A stretch of 64,000 nt of DNA from Ignavibacteria bacterium (lineage in GTDB: Bacteria > Bacteroidota > Ignavibacteria > UBA10030 > SZUA-254): contig QJVY01000092.1 in the NCBI GenBank assembly GCA_003235555.1, positions 17,257 to 81,256 on the forward strand. The letters are read 5' to 3'. The notes beneath the pieces were generated by a model. The model searched no databases. It was not told where the DNA came from and saw only the letters and a list, made by a program, of their open reading frames with translations. Of the stretch, positions 6,358-26,094 are shown in pieces. Within the stretch, counting starts at the first letter, position 1. Every line of letters begins with the position of its first letter. Both the position numbers and the translations under genes were made by a program.

Positions 6358-6413
6358 AAGTACCGAAGAGAGTGCAACGGGCGTGCCAGTCCCGTCCGGG
6401 GGGCGAACGAACG

Positions 6414-6449
6414 AAAAAAGCCGTCGTTCGGCTGAACGACGGCTTTTGA
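6414..6449 (-). terminator. Rho-independent terminator of the porin-cytochrome operon; the hairpin is bidirectional.
   Basis: AAAAAAGCCGTCGTTC-ggct-GAACGACGGCTTTT: an 11-bp perfect stem with A-tract and T-tract flanks, about 130 nt after the stop of the cytochrome gene ending at 6577. Confidence 0.6.
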
Positions 6450-6576
6450 GAATCCTGAAACCGGCCTGAATGGTTACTTTTTCAAGTGTGAAAATCCGGG
6501 CGGGAGTGGGCTTTCACTTGTGAGAATCAGCCCCGAATCGCATCACTTCCGGAGGGGATGTGACCGCCGGCCCCGG

Positions 6577-7497: not shown

Positions 7498-8613
7498 TCA
7501 GGGTTTCCGCAGCTCCTCAAGTGAGCTCGCGAGCAGCTCCCGCGCGTACTTGGTGTTATGGATCCCTTCGCTCAGATCGTGTTCGATGAAGAAATAATTG
7601 TACAGCGCTCCCGCCTTCACCGCCGGTGTGATCAGCAGTGGCGATGACGAACTCGCGTTGACGCTGCCGCCGGCGGTGATCCACCCCCGGCTCAGCAGCT
7701 CGTCGTGCAGAGCGTCGAGCGAGTCCTCGATGCCCTGCTGGACGAGGTGCATGTCGTCGGCGGAGAAGGACGAGGGGTGGCACCCGGACTGCAGGCAGCC
7801 GGTCAGGAGGGGAACTTCCCCTCCCCCCTCAACTTCGTAGTGGATGTTCATCGTGTGGCCGCCGGCTTTGCCCGTCCCCTGCGCGGGTGGGTACGACTGT
7901 TCGGCCATGTGGCAGGTGGGGCATCCCTCCTGCATGATGACCGCGTTGGTGGTGTGATTCGAGTTCCCCGTGTACGTGTATCCGGGGAACTGGTATCCGC
8001 CGTTGCCCGAGAGCATCTGGCTCTGGACGCCGTAGTGCGAATACCACCGGCTGCTCGTGATGCGGAGGGTGTCCGTCGCTCCGGGGTTCGAGGGCATCTT
8101 CGGCGACGTCGACCGGGGCATGTGGCACTGGGCGCAGAGGTTGCCCTTCCCGTAGTCGAATGTGGCGTCGGGCACGCCGTCGATATTTGAGAGCAGCGTC
8201 ACCGGTGTCGCCTTGCGGAGCGTGAAATTTCCCCTCGAATGCGGTGAATGGCAGGCGAAGCATCCCGGGGGGCTCGGGACGTACTGGTTGGTGACGGTTT
8301 CCCCGTTCATCCGCTGCACGAAACCCTCCGATGTATGGCACCCGGCGCACGACGACCCGTTGCGCTCGCTGTCTCCGCCGTTGGCGTGTTTCGACTGCGC
8401 CCACTGGTAGGCCCGTCCTGCGATGAAATAGGTGGTATCCACATCGGGGTTATGGCAGCTGGCGCATTGTATGCCCTCGGCGAATCCCTCGAAGGCATCG
8501 GATCCGGCTCCCGGCGGACCCTGCGGCCCCGGGTCGCCCTTGCAGCCCGTCATCAGGAATGACACAATCGCCGTGATCGTCAGCGCGAGTGATAGCGTTC
8601 GCATCCTGTTCAT
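7498..8613 (-). CDS. Multiheme c-type cytochrome lipoprotein (5-6 hemes).
   Basis: Signal peptide with lipobox LMTGC. CASCH, CAGCH, CFACH, CAQCH and CPTCH, plus CX4CH (CLQSGCH). Confidence 0.85.
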   Translation of the reverse strand: MNRMRTLSLALTITAIVSFLMTGCKGDPGPQGPPGAGSDAFEGFAEGIQCASCHNPDVDTTYFIAGRAYQWAQSKHANGGDSERNGSSCAGCHTSEGFVQRMNGETVTNQYVPSPPGCFACHSPHSRGNFTLRKATPVTLLSNIDGVPDATFDYGKGNLCAQCHMPRSTSPKMPSNPGATDTLRITSSRWYSHYGVQSQMLSGNGGYQFPGYTYTGNSNHTTNAVIMQEGCPTCHMAEQSYPPAQGTGKAGGHTMNIHYEVEGGGEVPLLTGCLQSGCHPSSFSADDMHLVQQGIEDSLDALHDELLSRGWITAGGSVNASSSSPLLITPAVKAGALYNYFFIEHDLSEGIHNTKYARELLASSLEELRKP

Positions 8614-8667: not shown

Positions 8668-9807
8668 CTACCTGCCCGAATGACAGAGTATGCACGTCGG
8701 GTCCTGTCCCTCGACGTCGTGGCACGACACGCACGATTCGATGTCGCGGCGTCCCATCTGCGCGTGCCTCCCGCCTCCCGAACCGGAGGCGATCATGACC
8801 CATCCGGCTTCGAAATGGGACTGCGGTTTGATCTTTCCCTCCGTCAGGATGCCGCCGTTCTGGTGGCAATCGGCGCAGAAGGCCTGACGATCGTGGCAGC
8901 CGGAGCAATCGATCATCCTGTTGCGGGCGTCGACCGGGTGCGTGAACCGGTAGTTCAGGTCGTGCGCCGCCTGGAGGCGGAGTTCGTCGGGCGAGTCCTT
9001 CAGGGACTGCCGGGCTCCGGGGACGGTCATCAGTCCCCTCGTCCCGCCGAAGCCCCTCAACTGGTCCCCGGTATGGCAGTCCTGGCAGAAACTTTCGGTG
9101 TGGCATGTCGAACAGGTGACGTCCATCGAGCCGAGGCGGACGGCCCTGTCGTGTTCCTTCGCGAACCCCGAGACGAGATGATTTTCGGGGATGAGGTTCG
9201 TGAAGTTCGAGTGGCACGTCTCGCAGTTCACCGACACCTGCTTTGCGGAATGGCAATCGACGCACATCGCCATCGCCGGCATGTGCGATTCTGTGCCACC
9301 CGTTCCGGAATGTGTCATTGCGCCCCCGGCGTCCCCGCCCTCACCACCATTCCCGGTGTCGACCGGGGGGAGGCCGCCGTGGCAGGTTTCGCAGGCTATG
9401 CCGCCGGTGGTCGCGTGTTTCTTGTGTGAAAAAATGAGATCCCGGGAGGGAAGGACCATGGGTTCGATCGCGTCGGGGTTCGTGTGGCAGTAGGAGCAGT
9501 CGTTCTCTATCGCCTCCCCGTGGCATGTTTCGCAGCTCTGGTGGTCCGGGATCAGCCTGTCCAGGGAGGATTCACTTTCGGGGGCGGCTGTGTGGCAGTC
9601 GGCGCAGGCGATTTCCCTCTCGACCACGTGGTTCTCATGTGAGAACATGACGCTCTTCCCGGGCTGCTGCTGTCCGGTTCTGTCCTGTGCGGCGGGTGTG
9701 GCGGCCGCGGACGGTTGTTTCATACCGGTGGCGACGAACAATATGGCAAGCGCGGAAACCGTGATGACGGCCGCGGTGTTCATGGTTTTTCTCATCCCGG
9801 GCGTCAT
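8668..9807 (-). CDS. Periplasmic dodecaheme cytochrome c.
   Basis: N-terminal signal peptide and twelve CxxCH motifs in 379 aa (CADCH, CETCH, CSYCH, CETCH, CVDCH, CETCH, CSTCH, CQDCH, CSGCH, CADCH, CVSCH, CILCH). Its start overlaps the upstream porin gene stop by 4 nt. Confidence 0.85.
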   Translation of the reverse strand: MTPGMRKTMNTAAVITVSALAILFVATGMKQPSAAATPAAQDRTGQQQPGKSVMFSHENHVVEREIACADCHTAAPESESSLDRLIPDHQSCETCHGEAIENDCSYCHTNPDAIEPMVLPSRDLIFSHKKHATTGGIACETCHGGLPPVDTGNGGEGGDAGGAMTHSGTGGTESHMPAMAMCVDCHSAKQVSVNCETCHSNFTNLIPENHLVSGFAKEHDRAVRLGSMDVTCSTCHTESFCQDCHTGDQLRGFGGTRGLMTVPGARQSLKDSPDELRLQAAHDLNYRFTHPVDARNRMIDCSGCHDRQAFCADCHQNGGILTEGKIKPQSHFEAGWVMIASGSGGGRHAQMGRRDIESCVSCHDVEGQDPTCILCHSGR

Positions 9808-11093
9808 AGTAATCCGAGCTGGTGGTGGAACCAGTAACTGACCTTCAGGAACCCCCGCAGGTCGCTGTCCATGAACCTGTTGTTCAGCATCTGGACCTGG
9901 ACATCGAAAGAGAAATGGTCGGCGGGCCTGACCACCGCCCCGAGAGATCCGGCGAACATCGTCTCATCCGGCGACCCCGCCTCGAGCCGGTAACTCGAGT
10001 AGGAAATTGCCGCGGTGGGAACGAGTTTTCTCTCGAGGAGGGGATACATCCCCTGGAGGTAGAACGAGCTCAGCTCTCCGGCGTAACCGTTGGACCCGCT
10101 GTAACTGACGGTGAAATACGTCGTGGTCAACCCCGCCGAGAGCCGGCGGCTGAGGTCTCCATCGTACCCCACGTACGCGAACCGCGCGGAGGCCCGGAGG
10201 GTGCGGGTGAACGCGTACTCCACGCCCCCCTCGTATTCCCGGACCGGCGACAGGGGAAACATGGTGAAAAACGAATTGTAGGGAACCGCGGGTTCGCGGT
10301 AGATGAAGTTCGCGAGGAAGGTGAACTGCGCGGTGATCGCGGCCCGGGCGTTGAGTTCGCCCCTGCGGGTCCGCTCGAGGTTCAGGTCGTAGTCGTAGCG
10401 GCCGTAGAACGATGTCCCGCTCCCCGCGTCGTGGGACGCGTCCACCCCGAACAGTTGCGTCGCCCTCGATCCCGGAGAAATCAGCACCATGACCGGGTTG
10501 AAGAGGGAATCCGCCCGGAGGGTTTCGTATTCCTGCCGTTCGATCCTGCGGTTCACGTAGCTCACGCCGAGGCGGGTACCCGGTGCGATTTCTCCCACCG
10601 CCTGCGCCCCGAGCAGAAAATTTTTGTCCAGGTCGCGGTTATGGTCGTAGACAAGGGAGCCCGGCACGTTCGACCCGCCGTATACTGAAAACGACAATTT
10701 GTTTTCGGCCGCCCTGATTTTGACGAAGCCGCCATCCACACCTCCGACACCCACGCCCGCGAAGACCGGCACCCGGCCAAGCCGGAGTTCAAACGTCCGA
10801 TCGCCGTTGCGATACTTCGCGAAGAGGTTCCGGACACGGAGCTCCGCCCCGTCGCCGATCGACTCGGAGAGGGACGCGGTCCCGAAGACCGACGTGGAGA
10901 GCGTGAAGTTCCCCTGGTTGACGTCCACCTGGAAATTCTGCATTCCCAGGAGAACGTTGCCGGAAGCGCCGACGGTGTCGAATTTTTCCCAGCCGTAGAG
11001 CGATGTGGAGAAGCGTCCGTTGATTTCCTGGGCGGCCGCGGGGAGGGCGAGCAGCACGATCCCGGCGACGAACGTCCGGAGTGCGGTGCGCAT
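9804..11093 (-). CDS. Outer-membrane beta-barrel protein, the putative porin of a porin-cytochrome conduit.
   Basis: Signal peptide MRTALRTFVAGIVLLALPAAAQE. Alternating hydrophobic beta-strand pattern throughout, with an aromatic C-terminal region (KVSYWF). No cofactor motifs. Start taken at the in-frame Met (11093); the ORF track extends to 11123. Confidence 0.55.
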   Translation of the reverse strand: MRTALRTFVAGIVLLALPAAAQEINGRFSTSLYGWEKFDTVGASGNVLLGMQNFQVDVNQGNFTLSTSVFGTASLSESIGDGAELRVRNLFAKYRNGDRTFELRLGRVPVFAGVGVGGVDGGFVKIRAAENKLSFSVYGGSNVPGSLVYDHNRDLDKNFLLGAQAVGEIAPGTRLGVSYVNRRIERQEYETLRADSLFNPVMVLISPGSRATQLFGVDASHDAGSGTSFYGRYDYDLNLERTRRGELNARAAITAQFTFLANFIYREPAVPYNSFFTMFPLSPVREYEGGVEYAFTRTLRASARFAYVGYDGDLSRRLSAGLTTTYFTVSYSGSNGYAGELSSFYLQGMYPLLERKLVPTAAISYSSYRLEAGSPDETMFAGSLGAVVRPADHFSFDVQVQMLNNRFMDSDLRGFLKVSYWFHHQLGLL

Positions 11094-11323
11094 GCTGGCC
11101 CCTGTGAGGGGGAATGCAATCATGAGAATGCTTTAGAAGTCCGATCGCCGAATTGGTGGTGTGACACTACCCTTACGATCATCCGAAGTGAATATCCGCA
11201 AAAAAACAAAAAGATACAATGGAAGTATTGAAGATTTTTACACTGTGCCGGGACGGATTATCGAAAATCCGACCACTTCGGTCGGAGAATAAACCTCCGG
11301 CGATATCCTTCCTCCCGGGGGTA

Positions 11324-11377
11324 GAAATAAAAATCGGACGCGCGAGGGGAGGGCCTCTTCCTCCGGAACGCGCGTCC
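11324..11377 (-). terminator. Rho-independent terminator of the first T9SS cytochrome gene.
   Basis: Minus-sense GGACGCGCG-(24 nt)-CGCGCGUCC, a 9-bp perfect GC stem, followed by GAUUUUUAUUUC. Confidence 0.6.
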
Positions 11378-11468
11378 GATCATCCACCAGTGTACAGATT
11401 CAAGACCGACTGCAGAGTATCGGCCTGTACGGGCCCCGGAAACCCGGGGCCCGCCGGTCCGTTTAAGA

Positions 11469-13586
11469 CTATTTCAGCAGGATCATTTTCTTCACGGAAC
11501 TGAACTCCGCGGTCTGCATCCGGTAGATATAGATACCACCGGCAACATCCTTTCCCGACCCGTCCCTGCCGTCCCAGGAGACCTGGTACACGCCCGGAGC
11601 GTAAGTCCCGTCCATGAGCGTTGCGACCCTGGCACCGAGGACGTTGAAGACTTCCACCCTCACTTCGCCGCTCTTCACCATCCCCACCTTAAAGGTTGTC
11701 GTCGGGTTGAAGGGGTTCGGGTAGTTCTGCGTCAGGACGTATTCCGCGGGTAGCGGTTCGTTCCCGGAGAAATCGATCCCGGTCAACTGGTTCACCGTTG
11801 TCTGCAGGAGTCCGATCACGTATTTGGGATTGTGGGCTCCATGGCTGTGGTCCTCCACGACGTAGAGGTAGTTCCAGTAGACCTGTTTGAGGAAGACGGA
11901 ATCCGGCTCCTCACCGATCAGCGCCCGCGTGATATCGGTGCTGCCGAAGGGGGGAAGCTGCATCGCGATCATGTCGAGGAGCCCATCCACCTCGTGCATG
12001 AACGGTTCGAGCGTTCCGTCCTTGTCGTAGTCGACCGCCGCGACGATATCCGAGAACTCGGTGATCCCCGTGTGGCATTCCACGCACTTGGTCACGTTGT
12101 TGTACTCGACGGAATCCGGGCCCTCGTACTCCATGTTCCAGCTGTGACCGCCGATCTGGTCGCGTGCGACGCTGCCGGTGTCGGGCGTCGGAGACATGTG
12201 ACACCCCACGCAGAGATCATCCACGAGCCGGTGGCCGATGCTGATGGGGATCTCCTGGCCGAAGGTATACCCGTTCTGGCCGAGGAAAACATCGGTCGCG
12301 CCGCGATGGTGCGGCCCCCTGAAACTGGACGCCCGCGTGTTGGGGATGTACGATTCGGGTTCGCGACGATATTTATGACAGTTGGTGCAGAGTTTCCCCT
12401 TCCCGAAGAAAGTCTCGCCGGCATAGGAATAGCCGTTCGCGAGGGTGTCGCTCCCCGGGGGTGTGACCCGGAGTTCGGTCGAGTGGGGATTGTGGCAGGT
12501 CTGACAGGTCATTTCGGAACGTGTCAGTTTGCTGTATCCCGACGATATCCTGTTGTCGAAAGGTTCGCCCTTGGTGAAAGCGACGAATCCCCCGCCGTCG
12601 TGGCAGCGGATACAGGCATCCAGCGTGTAGTTTGTGACGAGCGTGTCCGCGTCGGAGTCGTAACTTCCCGACCACGGTGGGTTGGCATGGCCGGAATTCG
12701 ACCACATCGAATAGAAATTGTGCCGCCACGGTTCATCGTGGCATTGTCCGCACATTTCCGCTTTCATGGTCTTCGGCTGGGTGCCGGGACCGGCATGCGC
12801 CGGATTTTTCGGGCCGTGGCATTGCTCGCATCCGATCCCTGAAAGAAGGGTCATCGTTTTTTTGTCGGTTGTGAGCAGGGAATCGTAGAGACCCGGCCTC
12901 CAGGGCATCCACTGCGTGTCCACGAATCCGACCGCCTGTTGGACTTCATCGAATCCGCCGTTATTGGCGCTGAGGTTGAACCCCGTCGTATGGCATTTGA
13001 AACAGGCCTGACCCCAGTACGAGCCGTTGTCGCCGTTCATGCCCTTCTCGAATTTCTTTGCGTGCCCCGATTCCGACCATGCGGCGTACACCTCTGGCTT
13101 CACCGACGAGTGGCACGTCTTGCAGTTGAATGCGCCCCCGCCCACGTCGTGGCGGTCGACGCCGATGAAATTCGCGGCGACGATGTTCACCGACGTGTCA
13201 ACTCCGCCGATCGTCAACCGGACACTGTAGGTACCGGCAGAATCGGTGTGCAATGTCGTCCACTGTGTGGTCGTGGAATCCAAAACGGCTGCGGAACCCG
13301 CCGGTTTCGAGAGGAGCTCCCAGAGGTAATCCGCTCCCGGGGCGTAGTTCTGTCCGTCGGAAACGTCCCACCCCGAGAGGAAGACACGCGTTCCCTTCCC
13401 CACAAGTGGGAGACCGGTGGTCACGTTGTCATGCTCGTTGGGGTTTTCGAAACCCATCTCGCCGAGCCGATGGGGGCTCATCGGTTCGATCTTGATTGCC
13501 GTCGCAGTCGTCTGCGCGGACACCCCGCCGACGGCCAGGAACAGAAAGAGAATGGAAAGGGTGGAAAACAGTATCATTTTAGCCAT
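11469..13586 (-). CDS. Extracellular nine-heme c-type cytochrome with a T9SS (Por) C-terminal sorting domain; paralog 1.
   Basis: Signal peptide. CxxCH motifs CKTCH, CFKCH, CEQCH, CGQCH, CIRCH, CQTCH, CTNCH, CVGCH and CVECH. The C-terminus ...LTQNYPNPFNPTTTFKV...IYIYRMQTAEFSSVKKMILLK is a Por_Secre_tail-type CTD. Confidence 0.85.
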   Translation of the reverse strand: MAKMILFSTLSILFLFLAVGGVSAQTTATAIKIEPMSPHRLGEMGFENPNEHDNVTTGLPLVGKGTRVFLSGWDVSDGQNYAPGADYLWELLSKPAGSAAVLDSTTTQWTTLHTDSAGTYSVRLTIGGVDTSVNIVAANFIGVDRHDVGGGAFNCKTCHSSVKPEVYAAWSESGHAKKFEKGMNGDNGSYWGQACFKCHTTGFNLSANNGGFDEVQQAVGFVDTQWMPWRPGLYDSLLTTDKKTMTLLSGIGCEQCHGPKNPAHAGPGTQPKTMKAEMCGQCHDEPWRHNFYSMWSNSGHANPPWSGSYDSDADTLVTNYTLDACIRCHDGGGFVAFTKGEPFDNRISSGYSKLTRSEMTCQTCHNPHSTELRVTPPGSDTLANGYSYAGETFFGKGKLCTNCHKYRREPESYIPNTRASSFRGPHHRGATDVFLGQNGYTFGQEIPISIGHRLVDDLCVGCHMSPTPDTGSVARDQIGGHSWNMEYEGPDSVEYNNVTKCVECHTGITEFSDIVAAVDYDKDGTLEPFMHEVDGLLDMIAMQLPPFGSTDITRALIGEEPDSVFLKQVYWNYLYVVEDHSHGAHNPKYVIGLLQTTVNQLTGIDFSGNEPLPAEYVLTQNYPNPFNPTTTFKVGMVKSGEVRVEVFNVLGARVATLMDGTYAPGVYQVSWDGRDGSGKDVAGGIYIYRMQTAEFSSVKKMILLK

Positions 13587-13647: not shown

Positions 13648-13663
13648 CGCAAAAATCATGCCG
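13648..13663 (-). promoter_or_regulatory. Sigma-54 (-24/-12)-type promoter candidate for paralog 1.
   Basis: Minus-sense CGGCATgatttTTGCG, with GG and GC separated by 10 nt, about 62-77 nt upstream of the start at 13586. Confidence 0.4.
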
Positions 13664-13811
13664 TTGAAAATTTCAACACTTTTGGGGAAATTGGCGAGTT
13701 TTTATACTCTGAAAAGGGGGGAATTTCTCAAATCTGAGGAGTTGGGTGTGTTAACCCTCTGATGCACGGATCGGGGCGGAAGGACCCCCTTTCGGGGATA
13801 TCATGGGTGGA

Positions 13812-13952: not shown

Positions 13953-16052
13953 TCATTTCAGCAGGATCATCTTCTTCACGGAGCTGAATTCCGCGGTCTT
14001 CATCCGGTAGATATAGATGCCGCCCGCCGCATCCTTTCCGGAGACATCCTTGCCGTCCCACGTTACCTGGTAGACGCCGGGAGGATAGGTCCCCTCCATG
14101 AGTGTCGCAACCCGGGCGCCCAGGACGTTGAACACCTCAACCGTGACCTCTCCCCCCTTCGCCATCCCCACTTTCATGGTCGTGGTCGGGTTGAAGGGGT
14201 TCGGGTAGTTCTGCGTCAGGATATACTCCGACGGAACCGGCTCGTGGCCGCTGAAATCCACGCCCGTGAGGTTGCTGAGGGTCACCTGGAGCAAACCGAT
14301 GATATATTTCGGGTTGTGCGCCCCCTTGCTGTTGTCTTCCTTCACGTACGCGTAGTTGTAGTAGACCGCTTTCATCCGCGCGGAATCGGGATCCGCTTCG
14401 ATCAGGGCGAAATCGATGTCCGTGCTTCCGAACGGCGGCAGCCCCAGCTCCACCATTTCGAGGAGGCCTTCGACTTCCATCTGGAAGGGTTCGGTGGTGC
14501 CGTCCATGTCGTAGTCGAAGCCCGCGACGATATCGCTGAACTTGGTGATACCGGTATGGCACTCGACGCACTTGGTGATGTTGTCGTACTCGACTCCACC
14601 TTCGACATACTTCTGCGTCCAGCTGTGGCCGCCGATCTTGTCGCGGGCCACGGTGCCGGTATCCGCCGTCGCCGACATGTGGCAACCGACGCAGAGGTCG
14701 TCCACCAGCCTGTGGCCGATGCTGTTGGTCAGCGTCTGGCCGAAGGTGTAACCATTCTGCCCGAGGATAACGTCGGCCGCGCCCCGGTGGTGCGGACCGA
14801 AGTGGCTGGAGAGGCGCCCGAGGACGTATGTTTCAGCGTCCCTCCGGTATTTATGGCAGTTGACGCAGATCTTGCCCTTGCCGAAGTTGAACGCCGAGTA
14901 GTCGTACCCGTTGCCCAGAGTATCGCTGGCGGCGGGGGCAACTCTCAACGAAGCATCGTGCGGATCATGGCATGTCTGGCAGTTGATCTTCGTGTGCGTC
15001 AGTTCGCCATATCCCGACGAAATCCGGTTGTCGAAGGGTTCGCCCTTCGTGAACGCCACGAAACCCGCGCCGTCGTGACAGCGGATGCAGGTGCTCAGGC
15101 CGTATTCGGTGACCGGGTTGGCGCCGTCGCTGTCGAAACTACCCGACCAGACCGCCTCGGCGTGGACCGAGTTTTCGAATTCGGAGACCTTGTTGTGCCG
15201 CCACGGTTCGTCGTGGCACTGTGCACAGAGAAGGAAGTCCATCGATTTGGGCTGCGTCCCGGCTCCCGCGTGCGCGGGGTTTTTCGGACCGTGGCAGTTT
15301 TCACAGCCGATACCGGCGACCATGCTCAGCTTGGCCTGGGGGGTGGTGAGCAACGAATCATAGAGGCCGGCCCTCCAGGGTGTCCACTCGGTGTCCACGA
15401 ATCCGAGCGCCTGGGCGACGTCGTCGAACCCGCCGTTGTTCGCGAACTCGTTGTAACCGACCGTGTGGCATCCCCAGCAGGACGGACCCCAGTGGTCGCC
15501 CCACACGTTGTTCAATCCGTTCTCCCACATCATCGCGTGCCCGGAACCGCTCCACTTGCTGACGATCTCGGGGGTGGCCCCGTTGTGGCATGTGAGGCAG
15601 TTGAACGCCCCGCCGCCCACGTTGTTCCTGTCGGCTCCGATGTAGTTGGCCGCAATGATATTGATGCTCGTGTCCTTGCCGCCGATCGTCAGTTTCACGG
15701 TGTAGGTTCCGGCCGAATCGGTATGCAGTGAGGTCCATTGCATCGTGGTCGAATCGAGTATCGCCGCCGAGTTCGCCGGCCGCGCGGTCAGCTCCCAGAG
15801 GTAATCTGCCCCCGGCAGGAACTCATCACTACTGACGTCCCAGCCCGAGAGGTACACCCAGGTGCCTTTTCCCACGACGGGCAGGCCCGACGTCGTGTTA
15901 CCGGCGCCGTTGGCGGATTCGAACCCCATCGTCTCGAGACTATGAGGGGTCAGCGCCTCGATCCTGATGGCAGTCCGCTGGGCGAAGAGATCTCCCCCGG
16001 TTGCGACCAGGATACACATCATGATTACCGCAAACAGTATCGATTTTTTCAT
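13953..16052 (-). CDS. Extracellular nine-heme c-type cytochrome with T9SS C-terminal sorting domain; paralog 2.
   Basis: 699 aa, collinear with 11469-13586. Nine CxxCH motifs. The CTD ...LTQNYPNPFNPTTTMKV...KKMILLK is near-identical to that of paralog 1. Confidence 0.85.
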   Translation of the reverse strand: MKKSILFAVIMMCILVATGGDLFAQRTAIRIEALTPHSLETMGFESANGAGNTTSGLPVVGKGTWVYLSGWDVSSDEFLPGADYLWELTARPANSAAILDSTTMQWTSLHTDSAGTYTVKLTIGGKDTSINIIAANYIGADRNNVGGGAFNCLTCHNGATPEIVSKWSGSGHAMMWENGLNNVWGDHWGPSCWGCHTVGYNEFANNGGFDDVAQALGFVDTEWTPWRAGLYDSLLTTPQAKLSMVAGIGCENCHGPKNPAHAGAGTQPKSMDFLLCAQCHDEPWRHNKVSEFENSVHAEAVWSGSFDSDGANPVTEYGLSTCIRCHDGAGFVAFTKGEPFDNRISSGYGELTHTKINCQTCHDPHDASLRVAPAASDTLGNGYDYSAFNFGKGKICVNCHKYRRDAETYVLGRLSSHFGPHHRGAADVILGQNGYTFGQTLTNSIGHRLVDDLCVGCHMSATADTGTVARDKIGGHSWTQKYVEGGVEYDNITKCVECHTGITKFSDIVAGFDYDMDGTTEPFQMEVEGLLEMVELGLPPFGSTDIDFALIEADPDSARMKAVYYNYAYVKEDNSKGAHNPKYIIGLLQVTLSNLTGVDFSGHEPVPSEYILTQNYPNPFNPTTTMKVGMAKGGEVTVEVFNVLGARVATLMEGTYPPGVYQVTWDGKDVSGKDAAGGIYIYRMKTAEFSSVKKMILLK

Positions 16053-16117
16053 ATGAGTGTCCTGTCTAGTTACAGTGAATGGTGAATTTTCGATCGAGTG
16101 TGTTTATCACCAAAAGG

Positions 16118-16132
16118 GCAAGAATTATGCCA
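16118..16132 (-). promoter_or_regulatory. Sigma-54-type promoter candidate for paralog 2.
   Basis: Minus-sense TGGCATaattcTTGC, 66-80 nt upstream of the start at 16052. This is the same spacing as the paralog-1 motif. Confidence 0.45.
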
Positions 16133-16329
16133 CGGTGACGGCCTGTACAAAAAATGTTTGGGGAGCTGAATTACGGTGGAAGGATGCCGGGGAGAAGAAA
16201 GTGATCAATACACCGCCGGATCGGTGTCGAAATTTTCAACAACCTCTGGATGAAGGGAAGTCCCCCACTCTCGGGGGGAATCCTGTTCTCACACCTGAAA
16301 GGGGGTGGGGGTAATGGGTTAAAATCCCC

Positions 16330-16368
16330 AAAAAAAACCCGGTATGGATGCCGAACATCCATACCGGG
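16330..16368 (-). terminator. Rho-independent terminator of the tetraheme cytochrome gene.
   Basis: Minus-sense CCCGGTATGGATG-uucgg-CAUCCAUACCGGG, a 13-bp perfect stem, followed by UUUUUUUUGGGG, starting 26 nt after the stop. Confidence 0.75.
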
Positions 16369-16393
16369 AACAGGTACGAAGGGATCGTCCCCT

Positions 16394-16936
16394 TTATTTC
16401 TTCGGAACCCGGTGCTCGATCTGCGGCCACATCTTGGCGTATTCGAATTTCTTCGCCGTCGGGCTCTTCTCGTTGTGGCATGTGACACAGAGCGCCGTGA
16501 TCGCCTTCTCGTCCTCGTACATCAACAGGCCGGCTTTTTCGGCTTTCTTCGCGTCCTTCATCGTCGCCATGTTCTTGTATCCAGATCCTGCACCGTGGCA
16601 CGATTCACACTGTACACCGTCCTTGACGTCGAATTTCTTGTCGAGCAGTTTGGCATCGGCGGTGATCGTGTGGCATCCCAGACACTCGGGTGTTTCAACG
16701 GCCTTCGTCTTGAATCCCTTCTTGGTGGCGATGGCGTCCGCTTCCTTCGTCAGGAGCACACTGTAGGCCTCGGAGTGTTTGCTCTTCGACCAGATCTCGA
16801 ATTGTTTACCCTGCTTTTCAGTATTGTGGCACATCTTGCACGTCGTCGTGCCCACGTATGTGTTCTGGGCGCTCGTGAGGGATGACAACACGAAGATGAG
16901 GCCGGCCAGGAGGGCGATGATTGTGAATCTGCTCAT
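16394..16936 (-). CDS. Periplasmic tetraheme c-type cytochrome.
   Basis: Signal peptide MSRFTIIALLAGLIFVLSSLTSAQ. CKMCH, CLGCH, CESCH and CVTCH in 180 aa. Confidence 0.8.
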   Translation of the reverse strand: MSRFTIIALLAGLIFVLSSLTSAQNTYVGTTTCKMCHNTEKQGKQFEIWSKSKHSEAYSVLLTKEADAIATKKGFKTKAVETPECLGCHTITADAKLLDKKFDVKDGVQCESCHGAGSGYKNMATMKDAKKAEKAGLLMYEDEKAITALCVTCHNEKSPTAKKFEYAKMWPQIEHRVPKK

Positions 16937-17049
16937 GGGGATCTCTCTTTCTTGTGTGAATTGGAGGTTTATGTAAAAGACTCTCGTACCGTGGATAAAT
17001 TTATGGTTTTTTCAGCTCATTTTCCTCAATCAAACCTACCAACTAATAC

Positions 17050-17065
17050 TGCATATTTCGTGCCA
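17050..17065 (-). promoter_or_regulatory. Sigma-54 promoter, near consensus, for the tetraheme cytochrome.
   Basis: Minus-sense TGGCACgaaatATGCA (GG-N10-GC), about 115 nt upstream of the ATG at 16936, in an AT-rich intergenic region. Confidence 0.5.
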
Positions 17066-17121
17066 TTACCATCAATATGAAAAAGGCACGAATTTAACCG
17101 TTTTTCAAAATTTTCACTCGC

Positions 17122-17216: not shown

Positions 17217-17633
17217 TCAATTCACGGAGTTCAGGATCTTCCGGACGAGTGAAACCATAAAGTTGAGGTTGAACGGTTTTTCAACGAAATAGTCCACCAT
17301 CCTGCTTTTCCCCACCTCTTCGAGTGACTCCTCCCCGTGTTCGATCGCCAGTACGAGGGGGGTCCTCCCCGAGATCGTCTTGATCCGCACCGCAAGTTCC
17401 AGGCCGTCCATCCCGGGGAGGTGGTAGTCGCTGATCACAAGGTCGACCGGTCCCTCGTTGAATTTCCGGAGAGCATCCTCGCCGCATTCCACGACATCTG
17501 GATCATAGCCGGCGCGCCCGAGGGCGTTCGCCATTGACCAGCCCAGGAGCGCTTCGTCTTCGACGATCAGGATCTTCTTGACATCCCGTGAGGGTACGGG
17601 TGGCGGGAGGGAATATGGTGAATTATTCAGCAC
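17217..17633 (-). CDS. Stand-alone response-regulator receiver (CheY-like).
   Basis: KKILIVEDE...DLVISDYHLPGMDGLEL...K receiver motifs. 138 aa with no output domain. Confidence 0.75.
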   Translation of the reverse strand: MLNNSPYSLPPPVPSRDVKKILIVEDEALLGWSMANALGRAGYDPDVVECGEDALRKFNEGPVDLVISDYHLPGMDGLELAVRIKTISGRTPLVLAIEHGEESLEEVGKSRMVDYFVEKPFNLNFMVSLVRKILNSVN

Positions 17634-17667
17634 CGTAACCGGTTGCGATCTGTGTGCGTACAGGAAG

Positions 17668-17682
17668 GCAAACTTTATGCCA
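17668..17682 (-). promoter_or_regulatory. Sigma-54-type promoter for the stand-alone receiver gene.
   Basis: Minus-sense TGGCATaaagtTTGC, 35-49 nt upstream of the start at 17633. Confidence 0.45.
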
Positions 17683-17804: not shown

Positions 17805-19165
<1,361 letters not shown>

Positions 19166-19166
<1 letters not shown>

Positions 19167-20689
19167 TACGATTTGTCCTTCGCGATCTCCCCGGGATCGA
19201 CGGGGAGGCGTACACGGCAGGTCGTCCCTGCCTGGTCCCCGCTTTCGAGGGAGATGGTACCATGGTGCTGTTCAACGATGCGCCGGGAGATGGTCAGCCC
19301 CAGACCGGTCCCCTGGTGCTTGGTCGTGTAGAACGGCCTGAAAATATTTTCACGTTCGGCCGGGGCGATCCCCTTCCCGGTGTCGCGGACGGTCACCGTC
19401 ACCGACCCGTTCCCGCCCTCGGTCGCGACGCTCACCCGCCCACCGTCGTCGGCGGCCTGCACGGCGTTTAAAATGACGTTCCAGAGGAGCTGCTGGAGGA
19501 GTTTCCTGTCCGCCGTCAGCCGCGGCAGCTCCCTGTCGAGCGACAGGTCGACCGTCACGTTTTTCTTCAACGCCTGCGAGGTCATGATCGAGACCGTCCG
19601 GTCGATGATGCCGTTCAGGTCGGTGAGGTCGAACCTGGGCGGGGAGGGCCTCGCGTAGCTCAGCAGGTCGTTGACCGCGAGGTTCATCCGCTCCATCTGC
19701 ACCATCATCTCCTGGAGTATCGGTTTGTTCGGGTCGACGTCGGCCAGGTCTGAATCGATCACCTGGAGCGCCCCCAGGACCCCCGCCAGCGGGTTTCGGA
19801 TTTCATGCGCCATGCTGGCCGCCATCTCACCGGTGGTCGCCAGCCGGTCGGCGTGCTCCAGCTGTTCATGGTGGAGTTGATGGAGGCGCCCGTGGGCCTC
19901 GTTCAACCGCTCCACCAGTGTGTTGAACGTGGTGATCAGGTCGGAAATTTCATCGTTTCTCGGAGACGGTTCCAGCGTGGAAAAAATCACCGGCTGCCCC
20001 TTTTCGACCCCCGCCAGCTGGTTCTGCAGCGTCCCCATCCGCTGCCGCAGAGTGGAAACGGGCCGGATCACCAGGACGAGCAGCGCCCCGGAAATGACCA
20101 GGCCGATTCCGCCGAACGTCACGATCGTCATCAGGATGTTCATCGTCCGGTGGTTCATGGACGCCTCCTGGATGTGGCCCATGGTGATCTTGACGGCCAT
20201 GTATCCGAGGACAGGTGCGGTGCCCGCGTGACATCCCGAGCAGCTCGGTTTCCTCTCGAGCGGCGTGAGGACGTACTGGAAGGGGGTCCCATCTTCCGTC
20301 CGCGAGAGGAACATCCCCCCGGGGAAACCTTCGCTCTCCCGGTACTCCGAGATCCGGAAGACCCGTCCGGAACTGTCCGGTACCGTGCTCACGCTGATTC
20401 CACCGTCGGGTTTGAGTAAGAACAGTGCCGCGATGTGGCCGGTGGAGTCTATCGTCCGCATGGCCGCCTGGAGGTGACTTTTTTCACCCTGGAGCATCAT
20501 GAATTCCACCACCCCCCTGCCGTACCGTGCGAGCGTGTACGCCTTGTCCCGTCCGTACTCGTTCAACATCTCCGTGCCCGTCCTGTAGGCGAAGTACGCG
20601 AAGCTGCCGCCGGCCACGACCAGGGCCGCCGCGACCGCCGCGATCATCTTCCGCCCGACGGAGTTGAATATTCGGGGGAGCATGGTCAT
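19166..20689 (-). CDS. Sensor histidine kinase with a heme-c (CxxCH) motif in its periplasmic sensor domain.
   Basis: TM1 at about residues 15-35 and TM2 at about 183-208 flank a ~145-aa periplasmic domain containing CSGCH. The cytoplasmic part carries HisKA (HEIRNPL) and HATPase_c. The start overlaps the ccmF stop by 4 nt, and the stop overlaps the NtrC start by 1 nt. Confidence 0.85.
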
Positions 20690-22944
20690 ACCATGGTCAC
20701 TGCGTCCGACTTCAGCCGTTTGACAAATGCGAGCAGGGTACCCCCGATGATGAACACGACGCCCGTCCAGAGCACCATCATCATCGGGATCATGCTGACA
20801 TCCAGCAGGAGCGCGGTGTTCTGCGGGGAGGACTCGTCCCCCTCGAAACCATGGAATTCCAGCAGGATTTTTTTGGCCTCGACCTGCATGCCGGCCAGGA
20901 TGACCTGGGGTTGCACCGTCCCCTTCGAGGGGTTGACCAGGGCCGGCAGGTCGACGGGCCCCGATTCCCGTTCACCGTTGCGGTTGAACGCGACCGTGGG
21001 GACGACGGAGTGGTCGTTCCCGTGGACGGGAACGTTGAGAACCGCTCCCACCATCATCGCGCCGGACTCGCTGTGCTGGGTCATGTCGAACTTCCGGAAC
21101 TCGATCTCGTAGCCATTGATGGATTTCTTCTCCCCCATGACGAGCTCCAGGGACGGATGGTTGTGGCCGCCCCCCGAACCCTGAAGTTCCATCGGGGAGA
21201 GGTAGAGGTCCTTGAGGGGCAGGACCCTGATGTGCGGCTCGCGCATGACACCCTTGTTGTATTCGCTGTAATAGAGTTTCGGCGTGGCCGCGAACTTCGA
21301 GACCCCGTCGGAGATTTCCAGGACGACGACGTTTTTCGCGTCGGGGGCCGGCTCCATGCCCCTGAAGGTGACGTCATAGCCGAACACACTCTGAGGCTCG
21401 TTCTCCTTCAACAGCACCTTCCGTGATTCCGTGAAGTTCCCCGATCCGACGATCCCGAGCATCAGCAGGGCCGCTCCGATGTGGCCGATCGGCCCGCCGA
21501 GCCCCAGGAACCCTGAGCGGTACTGCCTGAATGCAATGATCGAATTGCTGATCAGCGCGAATGCCGACATCGCGGTGAACAGGAGCATCATCGGCTCGGT
21601 GACGCCGGCCACGAACGCGATGACACCCCCAAGGACCGTCAGCACCAGCGGCAGGGAAAGCCGCCTCAGCAGCGACGCGGTATTGTCCCCCGCCCAGCCG
21701 AGAAAGGGTGTCACGCCCAGCAGGAGCGCCATCACGATCGCCACCGGCAGGTTGACCCTGTTGTAGAAGGAGATGTCCACCTGGGATGCCTTTCCCACCA
21801 GCCCGGTGAGGATCGGCGACGACATTCCGACGAAGGTGAACGCCGCGCAGGCCGAAAGCGCGTAGATGCTGAGCACGAGGAAGATTTCCCGGTAGAACGA
21901 GTGGTGGTCCACCGGCGGCGATTTGATTTCCCGGAACCGCCTGAAAAACATCCCGAATCCGAAGAGCGCTGTCGCCAGCATGACCGCGACGAGGTAGTTG
22001 TTGATTCCGAGGTCGACGAAGGAGTGCACGGAAAAATCCGCGAGGACACCGCTGCGGGTCAGGAAGGTCGCATAGAGGACCAGTAAAAAAACGATGATGG
22101 CGAGGAACATGTTCGTCCGCCGGAGGGACCCCCTTCCCCTCTCGACGACCATTCCGTGGATGAGCGCCAGCATCATCAGCCAGGGGACCAGGGAGGAATT
22201 TTCCACCGGGTCCCACCCCCAGTACCCGCCCCATCCCAGGACTTCGTAGGCCCAGAATCCTCCGATGATGATCCCCGCGCCGAGCATGGTCCCCGCAAAG
22301 AGCGTCCATCTGAACCCGAACGTCTTCCAGGCATCGTATTTCCGCGTCGTGAGGCCGGCCATCACGAGCGCGAAGGGAAAGATCGCCGCGGCGTAGCCCA
22401 CGAACAGAATCGGCGGATGGATGGCCATCCAGGGGTCCTGCAGGAGTGGGTTCATCCCCTGCCCGTCCGGCGGTACCATCTTTGTCATCTCGAACGGGCT
22501 CTGTACCAGCATCAGGAGATGTAAAAACGCGATATAGAGGCACACCACCGCGGGCGCGACCCCGGACCTGATCCCCTGCTTATGGATTAAAACGAGTCCC
22601 ATCAGCGCCACCATCAGGGCCCAGAGGAGGAATGTTCCTTCCTGTCCCGCCCAGAAAGAGGAGATGAGGTAGAGCATCGGCAGCGAACGTGAACTGTAAT
22701 GCGCCACGTAGGCGTATTCGAAGGAGTGGGTGAGGAGATGATAGTAGAGCAGGATCGACGAAGCGATGACCGACACGGTCGCGACGTGGTAGAGCTGTAT
22801 CGCGGCACGCGGCGGCGTCCCCCCTCTATTCCCCCTTTGCGCCCGGTTTTTCGGGTCCTGTCTGCCCGGTGCGGTGAAGAAAAACCACGCGGCGCCGAGC
22901 GACGCCAGGAACGTGATGAGTATGGTCAACTGGCCGGAATTCAT
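20686..22944 (-). CDS. ccmF: Cytochrome c-type biogenesis heme lyase CcmF/NrfE family.
   Basis: Polytopic, 752 aa. Diagnostic CcmF motifs: WAGQEGTFLLWA, NPLLQDPWMAIHPPILFVGY and the WWD region WAYEVLGWGGYWGWDPVENSSLVPWL, followed by a CcmF C-terminal domain. Confidence 0.85.
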   Translation of the reverse strand: MNSGQLTILITFLASLGAAWFFFTAPGRQDPKNRAQRGNRGGTPPRAAIQLYHVATVSVIASSILLYYHLLTHSFEYAYVAHYSSRSLPMLYLISSFWAGQEGTFLLWALMVALMGLVLIHKQGIRSGVAPAVVCLYIAFLHLLMLVQSPFEMTKMVPPDGQGMNPLLQDPWMAIHPPILFVGYAAAIFPFALVMAGLTTRKYDAWKTFGFRWTLFAGTMLGAGIIIGGFWAYEVLGWGGYWGWDPVENSSLVPWLMMLALIHGMVVERGRGSLRRTNMFLAIIVFLLVLYATFLTRSGVLADFSVHSFVDLGINNYLVAVMLATALFGFGMFFRRFREIKSPPVDHHSFYREIFLVLSIYALSACAAFTFVGMSSPILTGLVGKASQVDISFYNRVNLPVAIVMALLLGVTPFLGWAGDNTASLLRRLSLPLVLTVLGGVIAFVAGVTEPMMLLFTAMSAFALISNSIIAFRQYRSGFLGLGGPIGHIGAALLMLGIVGSGNFTESRKVLLKENEPQSVFGYDVTFRGMEPAPDAKNVVVLEISDGVSKFAATPKLYYSEYNKGVMREPHIRVLPLKDLYLSPMELQGSGGGHNHPSLELVMGEKKSINGYEIEFRKFDMTQHSESGAMMVGAVLNVPVHGNDHSVVPTVAFNRNGERESGPVDLPALVNPSKGTVQPQVILAGMQVEAKKILLEFHGFEGDESSPQNTALLLDVSMIPMMMVLWTGVVFIIGGTLLAFVKRLKSDAVTMV

Positions 22945-23037
22945 GATGTATTCTCGTGATCGGTATTGGAGTGCACGTCTTCATTCGAGGGAAAGCGACA
23001 TCAAAATCCAGAATTTCTTCCCTTTCCGGGCAATAAT

Positions 23038-23052
23038 GCAATCTTTATGCCA
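23038..23052 (-). promoter_or_regulatory. Sigma-54-type promoter for the ccmF-kinase-NtrC operon.
   Basis: Minus-sense TGGCATaaagaTTGC, about 95-108 nt upstream of the ccmF start at 22944. Confidence 0.45.
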
Positions 23053-23202: not shown

Positions 23203-24564
23203 CTATTTTTCGGTCGATATGGAAAGTTCTTTGATCCTACGGTATAACGTGGGCAGGCTGATTTGAAGTGATTTCGCCGTCTTTTCCTTGTCGAAATCGT
23301 TTTTCCTGAGGACGGCGACGATGTATTCCCTGGCGAGGTCGTTCACCACCTGGTCGAGGGATTTGTCCCCGTCGGCGGAGGGGACGGGCGGATAATTGTG
23401 GAAGGTGTCGGGGAGATCGGCAACGGTAATGGAGTCCCCCTTCGCGAAGATGACCGCACGCTCCACGATATTCTCCAGTTCCCGGACCTCCCCTCTCCAC
23501 GGGTGGTGGATCAGCAGGCGCATGACCTCCTGGTCGACCCCCTGCATCTTTCTGCCCATCTCCGACGAAAATTTTTCGAGGAAATGGTTGACCAGTATCG
23601 GGATGTCTTCCTTTCTTTCCGTCAGCGACGGCAGCCGGATTTCGACAATGTTGAGACGGTAGAAGAGGTCCTCGCGGAACCTTCCTGCTTCGATTTCTTT
23701 GCGGAGGTCCCGGTTGGTCGTCGCGATGAACCTCACGTCGACGGCCTGGGGTTCCGACGTCCCCACCGGAACGATTTCCTTCTGCTCGATCGCGCGCAGG
23801 AGTTTCACCTGGAGCTGGACCGGCATCTCGCTGATCTCGTCGAGCAGGAGCGTTCCCCCGTCGGCGGCCTTGAAGTAGCCCCCGCGGTCGGCGAGCGCCC
23901 CGGTGAAGGATCCTTTTTTATGGCCGAAGAGTTCGCTCTCGATGAGAGATTCGGGGATCGCGCCGCAGTTGACCGCGATGAAGGGCCTGTCGGCCCGCGG
24001 GCTGTTGGCATGGACCGCCCTCGCCACCATCTCCTTCCCCGTTCCGCTCTTCCCGGTGATGAGGACGGTCCCGTCGGTCGCCGAGATCCGCCGGACCGTG
24101 TCGAAGATCCGTTCCATCGCGGGACTCTGCCCGATGAGGTTCTTGAAGTCCACCCCACCGCTCGCTTCCTCGCGAAGGTACTGGTTTTCCCAGATGAGTT
24201 TCCTGTGCTCGAGCAGCCGCCGGATTTTGAGAGTGAGCTCGTCGAATTCGATCGGCTTCAGGATGTAGTCGTTCGCACCCTTGCGCAGCGCCGCGATAGC
24301 GGTCTCCATCGACCCGTACGCGGTGATGATCACGACGATGGTCTGGGGGCTGAGCTCCTTGATTTTTTCGAGGAGTTCCATCCCCTTCATTTCCGGCATC
24401 TCGAGGTCGGTGATCACCAGGTCGTACGATTTTTCGACGAACTTGTCGTAGGCCACCCTCCCGTTCGGGGCCTCCTCGACGCGGAACCCCTCCTTCTTCA
24501 GGATGAACGATGCGGATTCCCTGATGATCTGTTCGTCGTCGACGATGAGTATCGTGTCTGCCAT
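23203..24564 (-). CDS. Sigma-54-dependent response regulator (NtrC family), second copy.
   Basis: Receiver domain (ILIVDDE..DLVITDLEMP), then an AAA+ sigma-54 activator domain (GKSGTGKE..), then HTH. 453 aa. Confidence 0.9.
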   Translation of the reverse strand: MADTILIVDDEQIIRESASFILKKEGFRVEEAPNGRVAYDKFVEKSYDLVITDLEMPEMKGMELLEKIKELSPQTIVVIITAYGSMETAIAALRKGANDYILKPIEFDELTLKIRRLLEHRKLIWENQYLREEASGGVDFKNLIGQSPAMERIFDTVRRISATDGTVLITGKSGTGKEMVARAVHANSPRADRPFIAVNCGAIPESLIESELFGHKKGSFTGALADRGGYFKAADGGTLLLDEISEMPVQLQVKLLRAIEQKEIVPVGTSEPQAVDVRFIATTNRDLRKEIEAGRFREDLFYRLNIVEIRLPSLTERKEDIPILVNHFLEKFSSEMGRKMQGVDQEVMRLLIHHPWRGEVRELENIVERAVIFAKGDSITVADLPDTFHNYPPVPSADGDKSLDQVVNDLAREYIVAVLRKNDFDKEKTAKSLQISLPTLYRRIKELSISTEK

Positions 24565-24591
24565 GGTTATCGCTTGATGATGTGCACGGTG

Positions 24592-26094
24592 TCAGATGTC
24601 CGTCTTCCGGGGAGCAGCGGGACGCCCGGGCGCCCCCGGCTGCGGTTTCACGCCCCCGTGGAGCGGCAGTGTGATCGTAAATGTCGTCCCCTCCCCCACG
24701 AGGCTGTCCACCCGGATTTCTCCATCGAAACTCTTGATGATCCCGTAACTGATCCAGAGACCGAGGCCGGTGCCCTCCCCCACCTGTTTCGTCGTGAAGA
24801 ACGGCTCGAAGATCTTGGCGAGGTGTTCGTCGCTGATCCCCCTGCCGTTGTCCGAGATTTCGGTGACGACGGAGTCCCCGTCGGCGCGGGTCCTGCAGAT
24901 GATTTTCCCCGTCCGTTCTCCGGGCGGCACCGCCGCGAATTTATCATCCACCGCGTCCACGGCGTTGATCAGTACGTTAACGAACACCTGCTGGATCTGG
25001 TCCGAGACCACCGCCAGGCGCGGCAGGTTGTCCGCGGTGTGGACTTCGAGGGCGACCGTTTTCGCCTTCCTGGCCACACCGACGATGGCGGTCGCTTCCC
25101 GCAGGCACGCGTTGACGTCCGTCAGCTGGATTTCGTAGTTCGAGCGGCGGGAGAAATCGACCAGGTCACGGATGATCCGCGATATCCTGTTCACCTGGTT
25201 TTTGATGAGTTCAAGCTTGTCCCGCGTGAAGGCGTCCTCGGTCGTCCTTTCCAGCACCTGCACCAGCGAGGAGATGGACGTGAGCGGATTGCCCACTTCG
25301 TGCGCGATTCCGGCCGTCAGCAATCCCATGCTCTCCATCTTCTGCGCCTGGAGGAGATGCTTCTCGAGGGATTTCTGTTCGGTGATGTCCCGGTGGATGC
25401 CGAAATATCCGACCACCGTACCGTCGCCGTCGAGGATCGGCGAAATCAGCAACTGTGTATGGAATGGTTCCCCGCCGCGTTTCCGGTTCTCCACCTCCCC
25501 CGTCCAGACCTTCCCGGCCTTGATGGTCTCCCACATCTTCTTCCAGAATATCGCGGGGTGTTTCCCGCTGGAAAAGATGTTCGGGTTCCTGCCGATGAGT
25601 TCCGCGCCGGAATACCCGCTCGCGGCCTCGAATGCGGGGTTGACGTAGATGATCCGGCCTTCGGGGTCAGTGATTTCGAGGGGGTTGACGGTGTGGTGTG
25701 CGAGGTTCGAAAACCTCAGGAAGTCGAGGTCTTTCTTCTTCTCTTCCGATATATCGCGGCCGATAGCCAGGATGACGGCTCCGTGGTCTCCCTTCAGGGG
25801 GGAAAACGAAAACGACACTACCCGTTCGTCCCCGTCATCCCCTGCGAGCGTCAATTCGGTCCCGTCCGTACCACCGGTCCCGGACTCGTCCATCGCCCTC
25901 CTGAAAGCCGCCCGTGTCGATGGTGAGAGGAACTCCTCCATAGACCTGCCCGCAGGACTCATCCTCCCTGCTCCGAGGGTCTTCATGGTGGTGGTGTTCA
26001 GGTGCACGATGGAGCCGTCGGGGTTCAGGAGGAGGCAGAAATATGGAATTGCGTCGAGCAGGGATACCGGGATGGAATCCCGTCTCGCGCTCAT
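24592..26094 (-). CDS. PAS-domain sensor histidine kinase (cytoplasmic).
   Basis: Two PAS-like regions, HisKA ([10 protein letters not shown]) and HATPase_c. No TM segments. Lies immediately upstream of the NtrC-type regulator. Confidence 0.85.

Follow-up and report, generated by a model that had tools for sequence, protein, structure and literature searches.

The closest described counterpart of the locus considered here is the pcc gene cluster of Ignavibacterium album, which specifies a porin-like protein (IALB_1839), a 400-aa periplasmic cytochrome with 14 hemes (IALB_1838), an outer-membrane cytochrome with an atypical heme motif (IALB_1837) and IALB_1840, a periplasmic cytochrome associated with the cluster (Shi, Fredrickson and Zachara 2014, PMC4245776). 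The presence of pcc clusters in Ignavibacteria has since been reported by later surveys (PMC7399161; PMC6137239), whilst in metatranscriptomes of Geobacter the expression of tetraheme proteins of the Pfam family PF13435 (termed 'cytT') changed with anode potential (Ishii et al. 2018, PMC6246609). In order to place a further member of this system, we analysed a 64,000-nt stretch of DNA from an Ignavibacteria bacterium (assembly GCA_003235555.1, contig QJVY01000092.1, positions 17,257–81,256; hereafter the window), and in particular a minus-strand gene at 16394–16936 that encodes a small tetraheme cytochrome. As judged from its sequence this protein is a member of the cytochrome c554 family, and it probably serves the porin–cytochrome conduit encoded in the same cluster as a periplasmic electron carrier. 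The group of proteins to which it belongs was noted in 2014, but has never been characterised nor assigned to the c554 family; in addition, a multi-omics paper on Melioribacter roseus (PMC5492636) does not mention these cytochromes.

The tetraheme open reading frame (ORF) specifies 180 aa and has a third-position GC content (GC3) of 0.77, on par with other genes in the window; plus-strand ORFs that overlap it (16250–16885 and others) were without GC3 bias and were discarded. Four CxxCH motifs are found at residues 33, 85, 110 and 150. As such, the ORF, its GC3 and the motif count bear out the initial annotation of this DNA, which had placed a 180-aa four-heme cytochrome at these coordinates. 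At its N-terminus the protein carries a Sec-type signal peptide (MSRFTIIALLAGLIFVLSSLTSA|QN, residues 1–23, nt 16868–16936) with a signal peptidase I site, whilst inspection of sequence features revealed no lipobox, second hydrophobic segment or C-terminal tail for type IX secretion (T9SS) in the protein. The mature form would comprise 157 aa, with a mass of ∼17.5 kDa without hemes, a pI of 8.9 and 26 Lys residues. From these features we infer that the protein is soluble and resides in the periplasm.

With regard to family, the Pfam model Cytochrome_C554 (PF13435) was matched at 63 bits against a cut-off of 20.8, over model positions 1–84 of 84, and nearly all homologs of the tetraheme protein carry the same precomputed label. 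The only significant relative of solved structure was cytochrome c554 of Nitrosomonas europaea (PDB 1BVB), which was found at E = 9e-5 by single-sequence phmmer and at E = 8.8e-10 with a profile of 30 homologs. Its four heme motifs (CSSCH, CVGCH, CESCH and CSACH) are in register with those of the tetraheme protein (CKMCH, CLGCH, CESCH and CVTCH). Pfam matches to c7, c3 and MtrC-type families were partial and far weaker; that to Cytochrome_C7 (PF14522), for example, reached 30 bits and covered residues 99–160. By sequence, the tetraheme protein is a c554-family member.

Three other identities were considered and rejected. Members of the PpcA family have about 70 aa and three hemes. Descent from PpcA or STC was set aside on the basis of the 180-aa length and four hemes, the partial PF14522 match, and the lack of any PpcA or STC entry among PDB matches at E ≤ 1. 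The initial annotation had called the protein PpcA/STC-like and had proposed a homology comparison with c554, STC and PpcA; this comparison returned the c554 family and neither of the others, so that the family name has to be replaced, whilst the accompanying notion of a periplasmic feeder for a porin–cytochrome conduit stands as the best-supported reading. That annotation had also named orthology to NapB or NrfB, together with a cognate enzyme, as the outcome that would overturn it. Neither family was among Pfam or NCBIfam matches at E ≤ 0.01, no Nap or Nrf genes were found in the window, and no cognate enzyme gene lies nearby. Lastly, the score against the NCBIfam equivalog for nitrifier CycA (NF043010) was 39.8 bits where the cut-off is 400, and the window contains no gene of the hydroxylamine oxidoreductase (HAO) type.

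Across 30 homologs the four CxxCH motifs, His54, His175 and Met126 are invariant. The protein holds six His residues overall, all of them invariant across the family, and six His for four hemes permit at most two bis-His hemes. In cytochrome c554 three hemes are bis-His and one is five-coordinate. Upon alignment, His54 corresponds to His27 of c554, and the invariant Met sits at the region of c554 His102. The ligand set that would follow is two bis-His hemes, one His/Met heme and one five-coordinate heme, with the alignment suggesting His/Met ligation at heme 1 and five-coordination at heme 2. A PDB search with the C-terminal peptide, aimed at the distal ligand of heme 4, was uninformative, and a heme-free AlphaFold2 model (predicted local distance difference test score, pLDDT, of 71) had no fold match.

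The family is widespread. A word-indexed search yielded 715 relatives, nearly all of ∼180 aa; those with names are termed 'cytochrome c family protein' and come from metagenome-assembled genomes of Bacteroidota or Ignavibacteria. An exhaustive search of representatives at 50% identity gave 2,786 hits at E ≤ 1e-3 and 703 at E ≤ 1e-10, tandem and fused versions included, and a close relative is encoded in > 530 species-representative genomes. The hosts are mostly Ignavibacteria, Melioribacter and unclassified Bacteroidota; a few carry the label Kryptoniota, Gemmatimonadetes or Acidobacteriota. Many of hits P0241–P0262, which show two matched stretches, have two tandem c554-type modules, or one module fused within proteins of 300–960 aa; it seems that the four-heme unit has been reused as a building block.

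In order to examine gene neighbourhoods, the ORFs of 86 loci were labelled by BLAST against genes of the window and of one well-resolved relative (27 reference gene families), and neighbours were counted over 83 genes of the family; the sample represents the 80 best loci rather than all GTDB species. A homolog of the porin-like gene at 9804–11123 was the next gene on the same strand in 45 of the 83, mostly 6–45 nt away. In three others the gene precedes the 12-heme gene at ∼1.2–1.4 kb, a gap that could fit a porin gene too diverged for BLAST, and in eight the next gene downstream is CbcL-like, specifying a multiheme domain fused to a diheme cytochrome b. On the upstream side the neighbour was a CbcL-like gene in 14 cases and, in 12, an 11-heme gene that ends an ImcH-like/Rieske/cytochrome b module. 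Among the 49 loci with at least 5 kb on each side, outer-membrane module genes were present in 41, inner-membrane module genes in 29 and both in 24, and in 18 of these 24 the tetraheme gene stands at the junction of the two modules. It is thus comparative genomics, and not the reasons offered by the initial annotation, that supports a conduit-feeder role; this neighbourhood is the main evidence for function, and the role suggested below is drawn from it only.

In its fullest form, as seen in L004, L005, L011, L015, L061 and others, the arrangement is a supercluster that runs from HemN-like, PAS kinase and sigma-54 activator genes through CbcL-like, 19-heme, ImcH-like, Rieske, cytochrome b and 11-heme genes to the c554-type gene, the porin gene, further cytochromes and a CcmF-like gene. 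The presence of a Rieske/cytochrome b module among multiheme cytochromes is unusual.

The gene order in a metagenome-assembled genome of I. album (L051) is a four-heme c554-type gene, a porin gene, a 399-aa 14-heme gene and a gene with six CxxCH motifs and one CX4CH. This order matches the published description (PMC4245776), and the family has therefore already been noticed as a periplasmic pcc-associated cytochrome. Accordingly, the tetraheme protein would be the ortholog of IALB_1840, an equation made from gene order and the published descriptions rather than from the locus tag itself. In a rough neighbour-joining tree, the window and four related contigs (L007, L087, L088 and L089) form one derived branch among porin-adjacent lineages. 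On the window's branch, two tandem 9-heme cytochromes with T9SS tails stand between the tetraheme and porin genes, and the tetraheme gene is served by a separate promoter and terminator. Independent transcription of the gene is a derived trait of a single small clade.

How, then, might the tetraheme protein operate? As a periplasmic carrier, which we consider probable, it would receive electrons from inner-membrane quinol oxidoreductases of the CbcL-like, ImcH-like and Rieske/cytochrome b types that are encoded beside the gene in relatives. It would pass them across the periplasm to the barrel (9804–11123) and the 12-heme cytochrome (8668–9807), and from the barrel-sheathed 12-heme cytochrome they would go to two lipoprotein cytochromes and to the two T9SS-displayed 9-heme surface cytochromes, which probably form the outermost layer. 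The descriptions of CbcL and ImcH given in PMC6295460 fit the neighbours of the tetraheme gene; both the redox partners and the direction of electron flow are what we infer from these arrangements. Several observations weigh against this assignment. The subfamily is so far known from sequence, and nitrifier c554, its nearest relative of solved structure, works as a dedicated partner of HAO and not as a general shuttle. The structural model is of moderate quality (pLDDT 71), so that heme packing and ligands have to be read from the alignment. A gene for an inner-membrane quinol oxidase was not found in the 64-kb window, where searches for homologs of CbcL, ImcH, Rieske protein and cytochrome b returned none. 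Furthermore, the −12 element of the promoter described below reads TGT, not TGC, in three of five relatives, and the tight operon linkage to the porin gene would fit a bound subunit equally well. This last point could be taken to mean that the protein does not diffuse as a shuttle but is a docking adaptor or fixed subunit, bound where the 12-heme cytochrome faces the periplasm, as genes set 6–45 nt apart on the same strand in most lineages, with no room for a terminator, are typical of stoichiometric partners. We nevertheless regard such an arrangement as unlikely: in the window's clade the gene lies ∼5 kb from the porin operon with a promoter and terminator of its own, the downstream gene in eight loci is CbcL-like instead, and the protein is small, basic and soluble-looking. 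A variant of the carrier role, in which the conduit works in the inward direction (to oxidise Fe(II) or take up electrons) and the protein carries electrons from the outer to the inner membrane as proposed for MtoD, appears distinctly improbable. The sequence does not fix direction, CbcL/MtoC-type proteins are found in iron oxidisers as well as in iron reducers (PMC6295460), and the invariant Met126 points to one His/Met heme with a higher potential; however, ImcH-like genes, which are common neighbours, have so far been reported solely from Fe(III) reducers (PMC6295460), and Fe(III) is reduced by cultured relatives that have this cluster (PMC7399161; PMC6137239). That the protein might act like nitrifier c554 itself, either accepting electrons from an HAO-type donor or reacting with nitric oxide or peroxide at a five-coordinate heme, is hardly credible. 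It would accord with the closest solved structure being that of N. europaea c554 and with six invariant His for four hemes, one of which may be five-coordinate as in c554; the equivalog score, however, is 39.8 against a cut-off of 400, and no HAO, Nrf or Nap gene was found in the window (these genes were not among the 27 label families, and the related loci were not scanned for them).

A further alternative concerns transcription: the gene might be read through from the promoter of the upstream response-regulator gene, its own promoter motif being a chance match. The motif in question, TGGCACGAAATATGCA at 17050–17065 (−), is of the sigma-54 (−24/−12) type, has one mismatch to TGGCAC-N5-TTGCW and lies 113 nt 5′ of the ATG. 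In extended form it reads TGGCACG-N4-ATGCA, with GG at −24, GC at −12, a 10-nt spacing and activators encoded adjacently. Read-through would be compatible with window-wide counts of sigma-54 motifs that are not above chance (11 observed vs 15.4 expected), with the absence of any terminator found between the response-regulator gene (17217) and the motif, and with the replacement of the −12 GC by GT in three relatives. Against this, of the eight best matches in which GG and GC are retained, five fall in promoter-like positions (intergenic, co-oriented and ≤ 135 nt upstream of a start codon), which make up 2.5% of strand-positions, so that their placement is far from chance (binomial P ∼5e-7). 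In addition, when the window was compared with L007, L087, L088 and L089, whose tetraheme proteins are 79–87% identical, the 16-nt block TGGCACGrAATATGyAG was invariant in all five sequences and the most conserved part of the upstream region, its flanks having diverged, and it was retained in L087 despite a different upstream gene. Two sigma-54 activators are moreover encoded next door. We therefore find read-through very doubtful, and propose that the tetraheme promoter is sigma-54 dependent in vivo. Directly 5′ of the gene in 79 more distant homologs, sigma-54 motifs occur at chance level (four vs ∼2.4 expected), which indicates that direct sigma-54 control of the tetraheme gene would be clade-specific; weaker signs of sigma-54 promoters were seen before CbcL-like genes in six loci.

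Between promoter and start codon lies a 113-nt 5′ leader (16937–17049, −) with a conserved purine-rich ribosome-binding region, AGAAAGAGAGAT, right before the ATG; an Rfam search of 5.5–27 kb, this leader included, matched no RNA family. At the opposite end, the transcript is bounded by a predicted intrinsic terminator (16330–16368, −), consisting of a 14-bp hairpin (16338–16368; eight G–C pairs, 3-nt loop) followed by T8 (16330–16337). A textbook terminator with a 13-bp stem and U8 had been described previously at this site, and is upheld with one additional pair. The 71-nt segment that contains it folds at −33.5 kcal/mol (z = −4.2 vs shuffles), of which the hairpin's own share is −25.2 kcal/mol in the centroid structure, and both hairpin and T-run recur in four relatives with altered stem sequence. 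Right after the terminator, a block at 16290–16330 (−), TTTTTTTGGGTATTTTCACCCA...TCAGGnGTGATAAC, is kept in all five relatives and contains a small GGGT/ACCC hairpin.

Promoters of the sigma-54 class are likewise found before both T9SS cytochrome genes, the response-regulator gene, the operon of CcmF-like, kinase and activator genes, and a hemerythrin gene; the tetraheme unit is thus, on motif evidence, one of about six putative sigma-54 promoters in the cluster. It does not have the best such promoter in the window, as had been claimed, since the perfect match is TGGCACGCCCGTTGCA at 6373–6388 (−), before the hemerythrin gene. Nor is the previously suggested separate regulation supported. Because this class of promoter is common to other cluster units and no terminator follows the response-regulator gene, the tetraheme gene is probably transcribed separately but with regulation that is shared with the cluster. 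Likewise, the description of the gene as an independent sigma-54 unit holds within the window's clade, whilst most relatives appear to co-transcribe it with the porin gene. The adjacent two-component activators would probably drive these promoters, and with a short separate unit the cell may be able to produce more of the soluble carrier than of the membrane complexes. A palindrome, TTGA-W5-TCRA, is a candidate regulator-binding site: it occurs at 13664–13676, where it abuts the −24 element of one T9SS promoter, and at 16227–16239, ∼95 nt upstream of the other, with ∼0.03 copies expected per window in shuffles and an equivalent in L087 that reads GTTGAAAAACTCAAC. A degenerate copy lies at 17105–17116, ∼40 nt upstream of the tetraheme promoter. 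As this copy is not conserved in relatives, we rejected the palindrome as a shared activator site that includes the tetraheme gene, and it is not used as evidence here.

Several regulatory genes lie upstream of the tetraheme promoter. Closest to it is the gene for a single-domain response regulator of 138 aa (17217–17633, −; sigma-54-like promoter at 17667–17682), followed by an operon at 17805–22944 (−) with a sigma-54-like promoter at 23037–23052. The operon is headed by a gene for a CcmF-like heme lyase (20686–22944, −), and continues with a sensor kinase that has a periplasmic CxxCH motif (19166–20689, −) and a sigma-54 activator (17805–19166, −), the GAFTGA loop of which reads GAFTDA. In the kinase, two membrane segments flank a periplasmic domain of ∼145 aa that carries CSGCH (residues 150–154); the motif is kept in the L007 homolog, and Pfam gave no match for the domain. 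The kinase looks like a periplasmic c-heme redox sensor for the adjacent activator. CcmF-like genes also end many related clusters, and the position of this one suggests a dedicated heme lyase that is co-regulated with the cytochromes of the cluster. Further out, a PAS histidine kinase (24592–26094) and a second sigma-54 activator (23203–24564) form a pair (23203–26094, −) that recurs near c554-type genes elsewhere. One could imagine that the tetraheme protein, by virtue of its predicted five-coordinate and His/Met hemes, signals to the CxxCH kinase how reduced the periplasmic pool of cytochromes is, and that the kinase would act through the activator at 17805–19166 on the tetraheme, T9SS-cytochrome and CcmF-like promoters and so create a self-tuning feedback loop for extracellular respiration; we see a very slim chance that this is so.

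Downstream of the tetraheme gene are the two 9-heme cytochromes, of 699 aa (13953–16052, −; sigma-54-like promoter TGGCATAATTCTTGCC, 16117–16132, invariant in relatives) and 705 aa (11469–13586, −; sigma-54-like promoter at 13648–13663). These are tandem paralogs, both with FlgD-Ig and T9SS C-terminal sorting domains, and each with a sigma-54-like promoter and terminator of its own. The duplication took along ∼150 nt of 3′ flank, and the pair is inserted inside the porin–cytochrome cluster. A literature search found no paper that links type IX secretion with multiheme cytochromes. The porin operon follows, preceded at 11124–11468 (−) by two terminator-like hairpins and by no recognisable sigma-54 motif; in L087, only 58 nt separate the second T9SS cytochrome gene from the porin gene. 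The first protein of this operon is the 439-aa porin-like outer-membrane beta-barrel (9804–11123, −), whose gene is the usual immediate downstream neighbour of c554-type genes. It had no Pfam match, but its AlphaFold2 model (pLDDT 87.6) is all-beta with ∼24 strands, and its Foldseek matches in the PDB were outer-membrane barrels only. Then come the 379-aa 12-heme periplasmic cytochrome (8668–9807, −), which is the counterpart of IALB_1838, and two lipoprotein cytochromes, one of 371 aa with five CxxCH motifs, one CX4CH and the lipobox MTGC (7498–8613, −), and another of 293 aa with six CxxCH and one CX4CH (6577–7458, −), the counterpart of IALB_1837. Last is the gene for a 172-aa hemerythrin-domain protein (5839–6357, −). 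The perfect sigma-54 consensus noted above lies just past the final cytochrome gene's terminator and ends ∼16 nt before the hemerythrin ATG; the same gene closes the cluster in L087, and a plus-strand ORF at 5885–6469 is probably spurious.

Little is gained here over earlier genomic surveys beyond the placement in the c554 family, a measure of how tightly the gene is linked to the porin gene, and the rewiring specific to this clade. If the proposed role is true, the tetraheme family would be the standard periplasmic link of the Ignavibacteria-type porin–cytochrome pathway. Bacteria of the Ignavibacteria type commonly inhabit sediments, aquifers and anode biofilms. Given that they are common and that the carrier is defined and small, this easily expressed protein would offer a practical entry point for testing the function and direction of the conduit.

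When set against the systems described to date, the tetraheme protein most resembles IALB_1840. It has 49% identity to the copy in the I. album metagenome-assembled genome, four hemes and a signal peptide, and it shares the company of a porin-like protein, a large periplasmic multiheme cytochrome and an outer-membrane partner with an atypical motif, all three encoded on the same strand in the window. It differs in that I. album and most relatives have the gene directly before the porin gene, whereas in the window two T9SS genes intervene and the gene is flanked by a sigma-54 promoter and a terminator that belong to it alone. N. europaea c554 (CycA; 1BVB, 1FT5, 1FT6) is homologous, with the same order and register of CxxCH motifs, a conserved His (His27, here His54) and, in the tetraheme protein, a His count compatible with one five-coordinate heme. 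Identity is nevertheless ∼25–30%, the tetraheme protein is 30 residues shorter, has Met at the region of c554 His102, lacks an HAO partner and scores below the NCBIfam equivalog cut-off. The Geobacter 'cytT' proteins belong to the same Pfam family and are linked to extracellular electron transfer by expression, but come from another phylum and gene context, and are likened here by Pfam family rather than by sequence comparison. PpcA, the triheme c7 of Geobacter, and STC (CctA) of Shewanella represent other families, and the tetraheme protein is about twice their size; the likeness lies in the proposed role, that of an abundant, small and soluble periplasmic multiheme carrier. Should that role be correct, a protein of the c554 fold would serve these bacteria as PpcA serves Geobacter and STC serves Shewanella.

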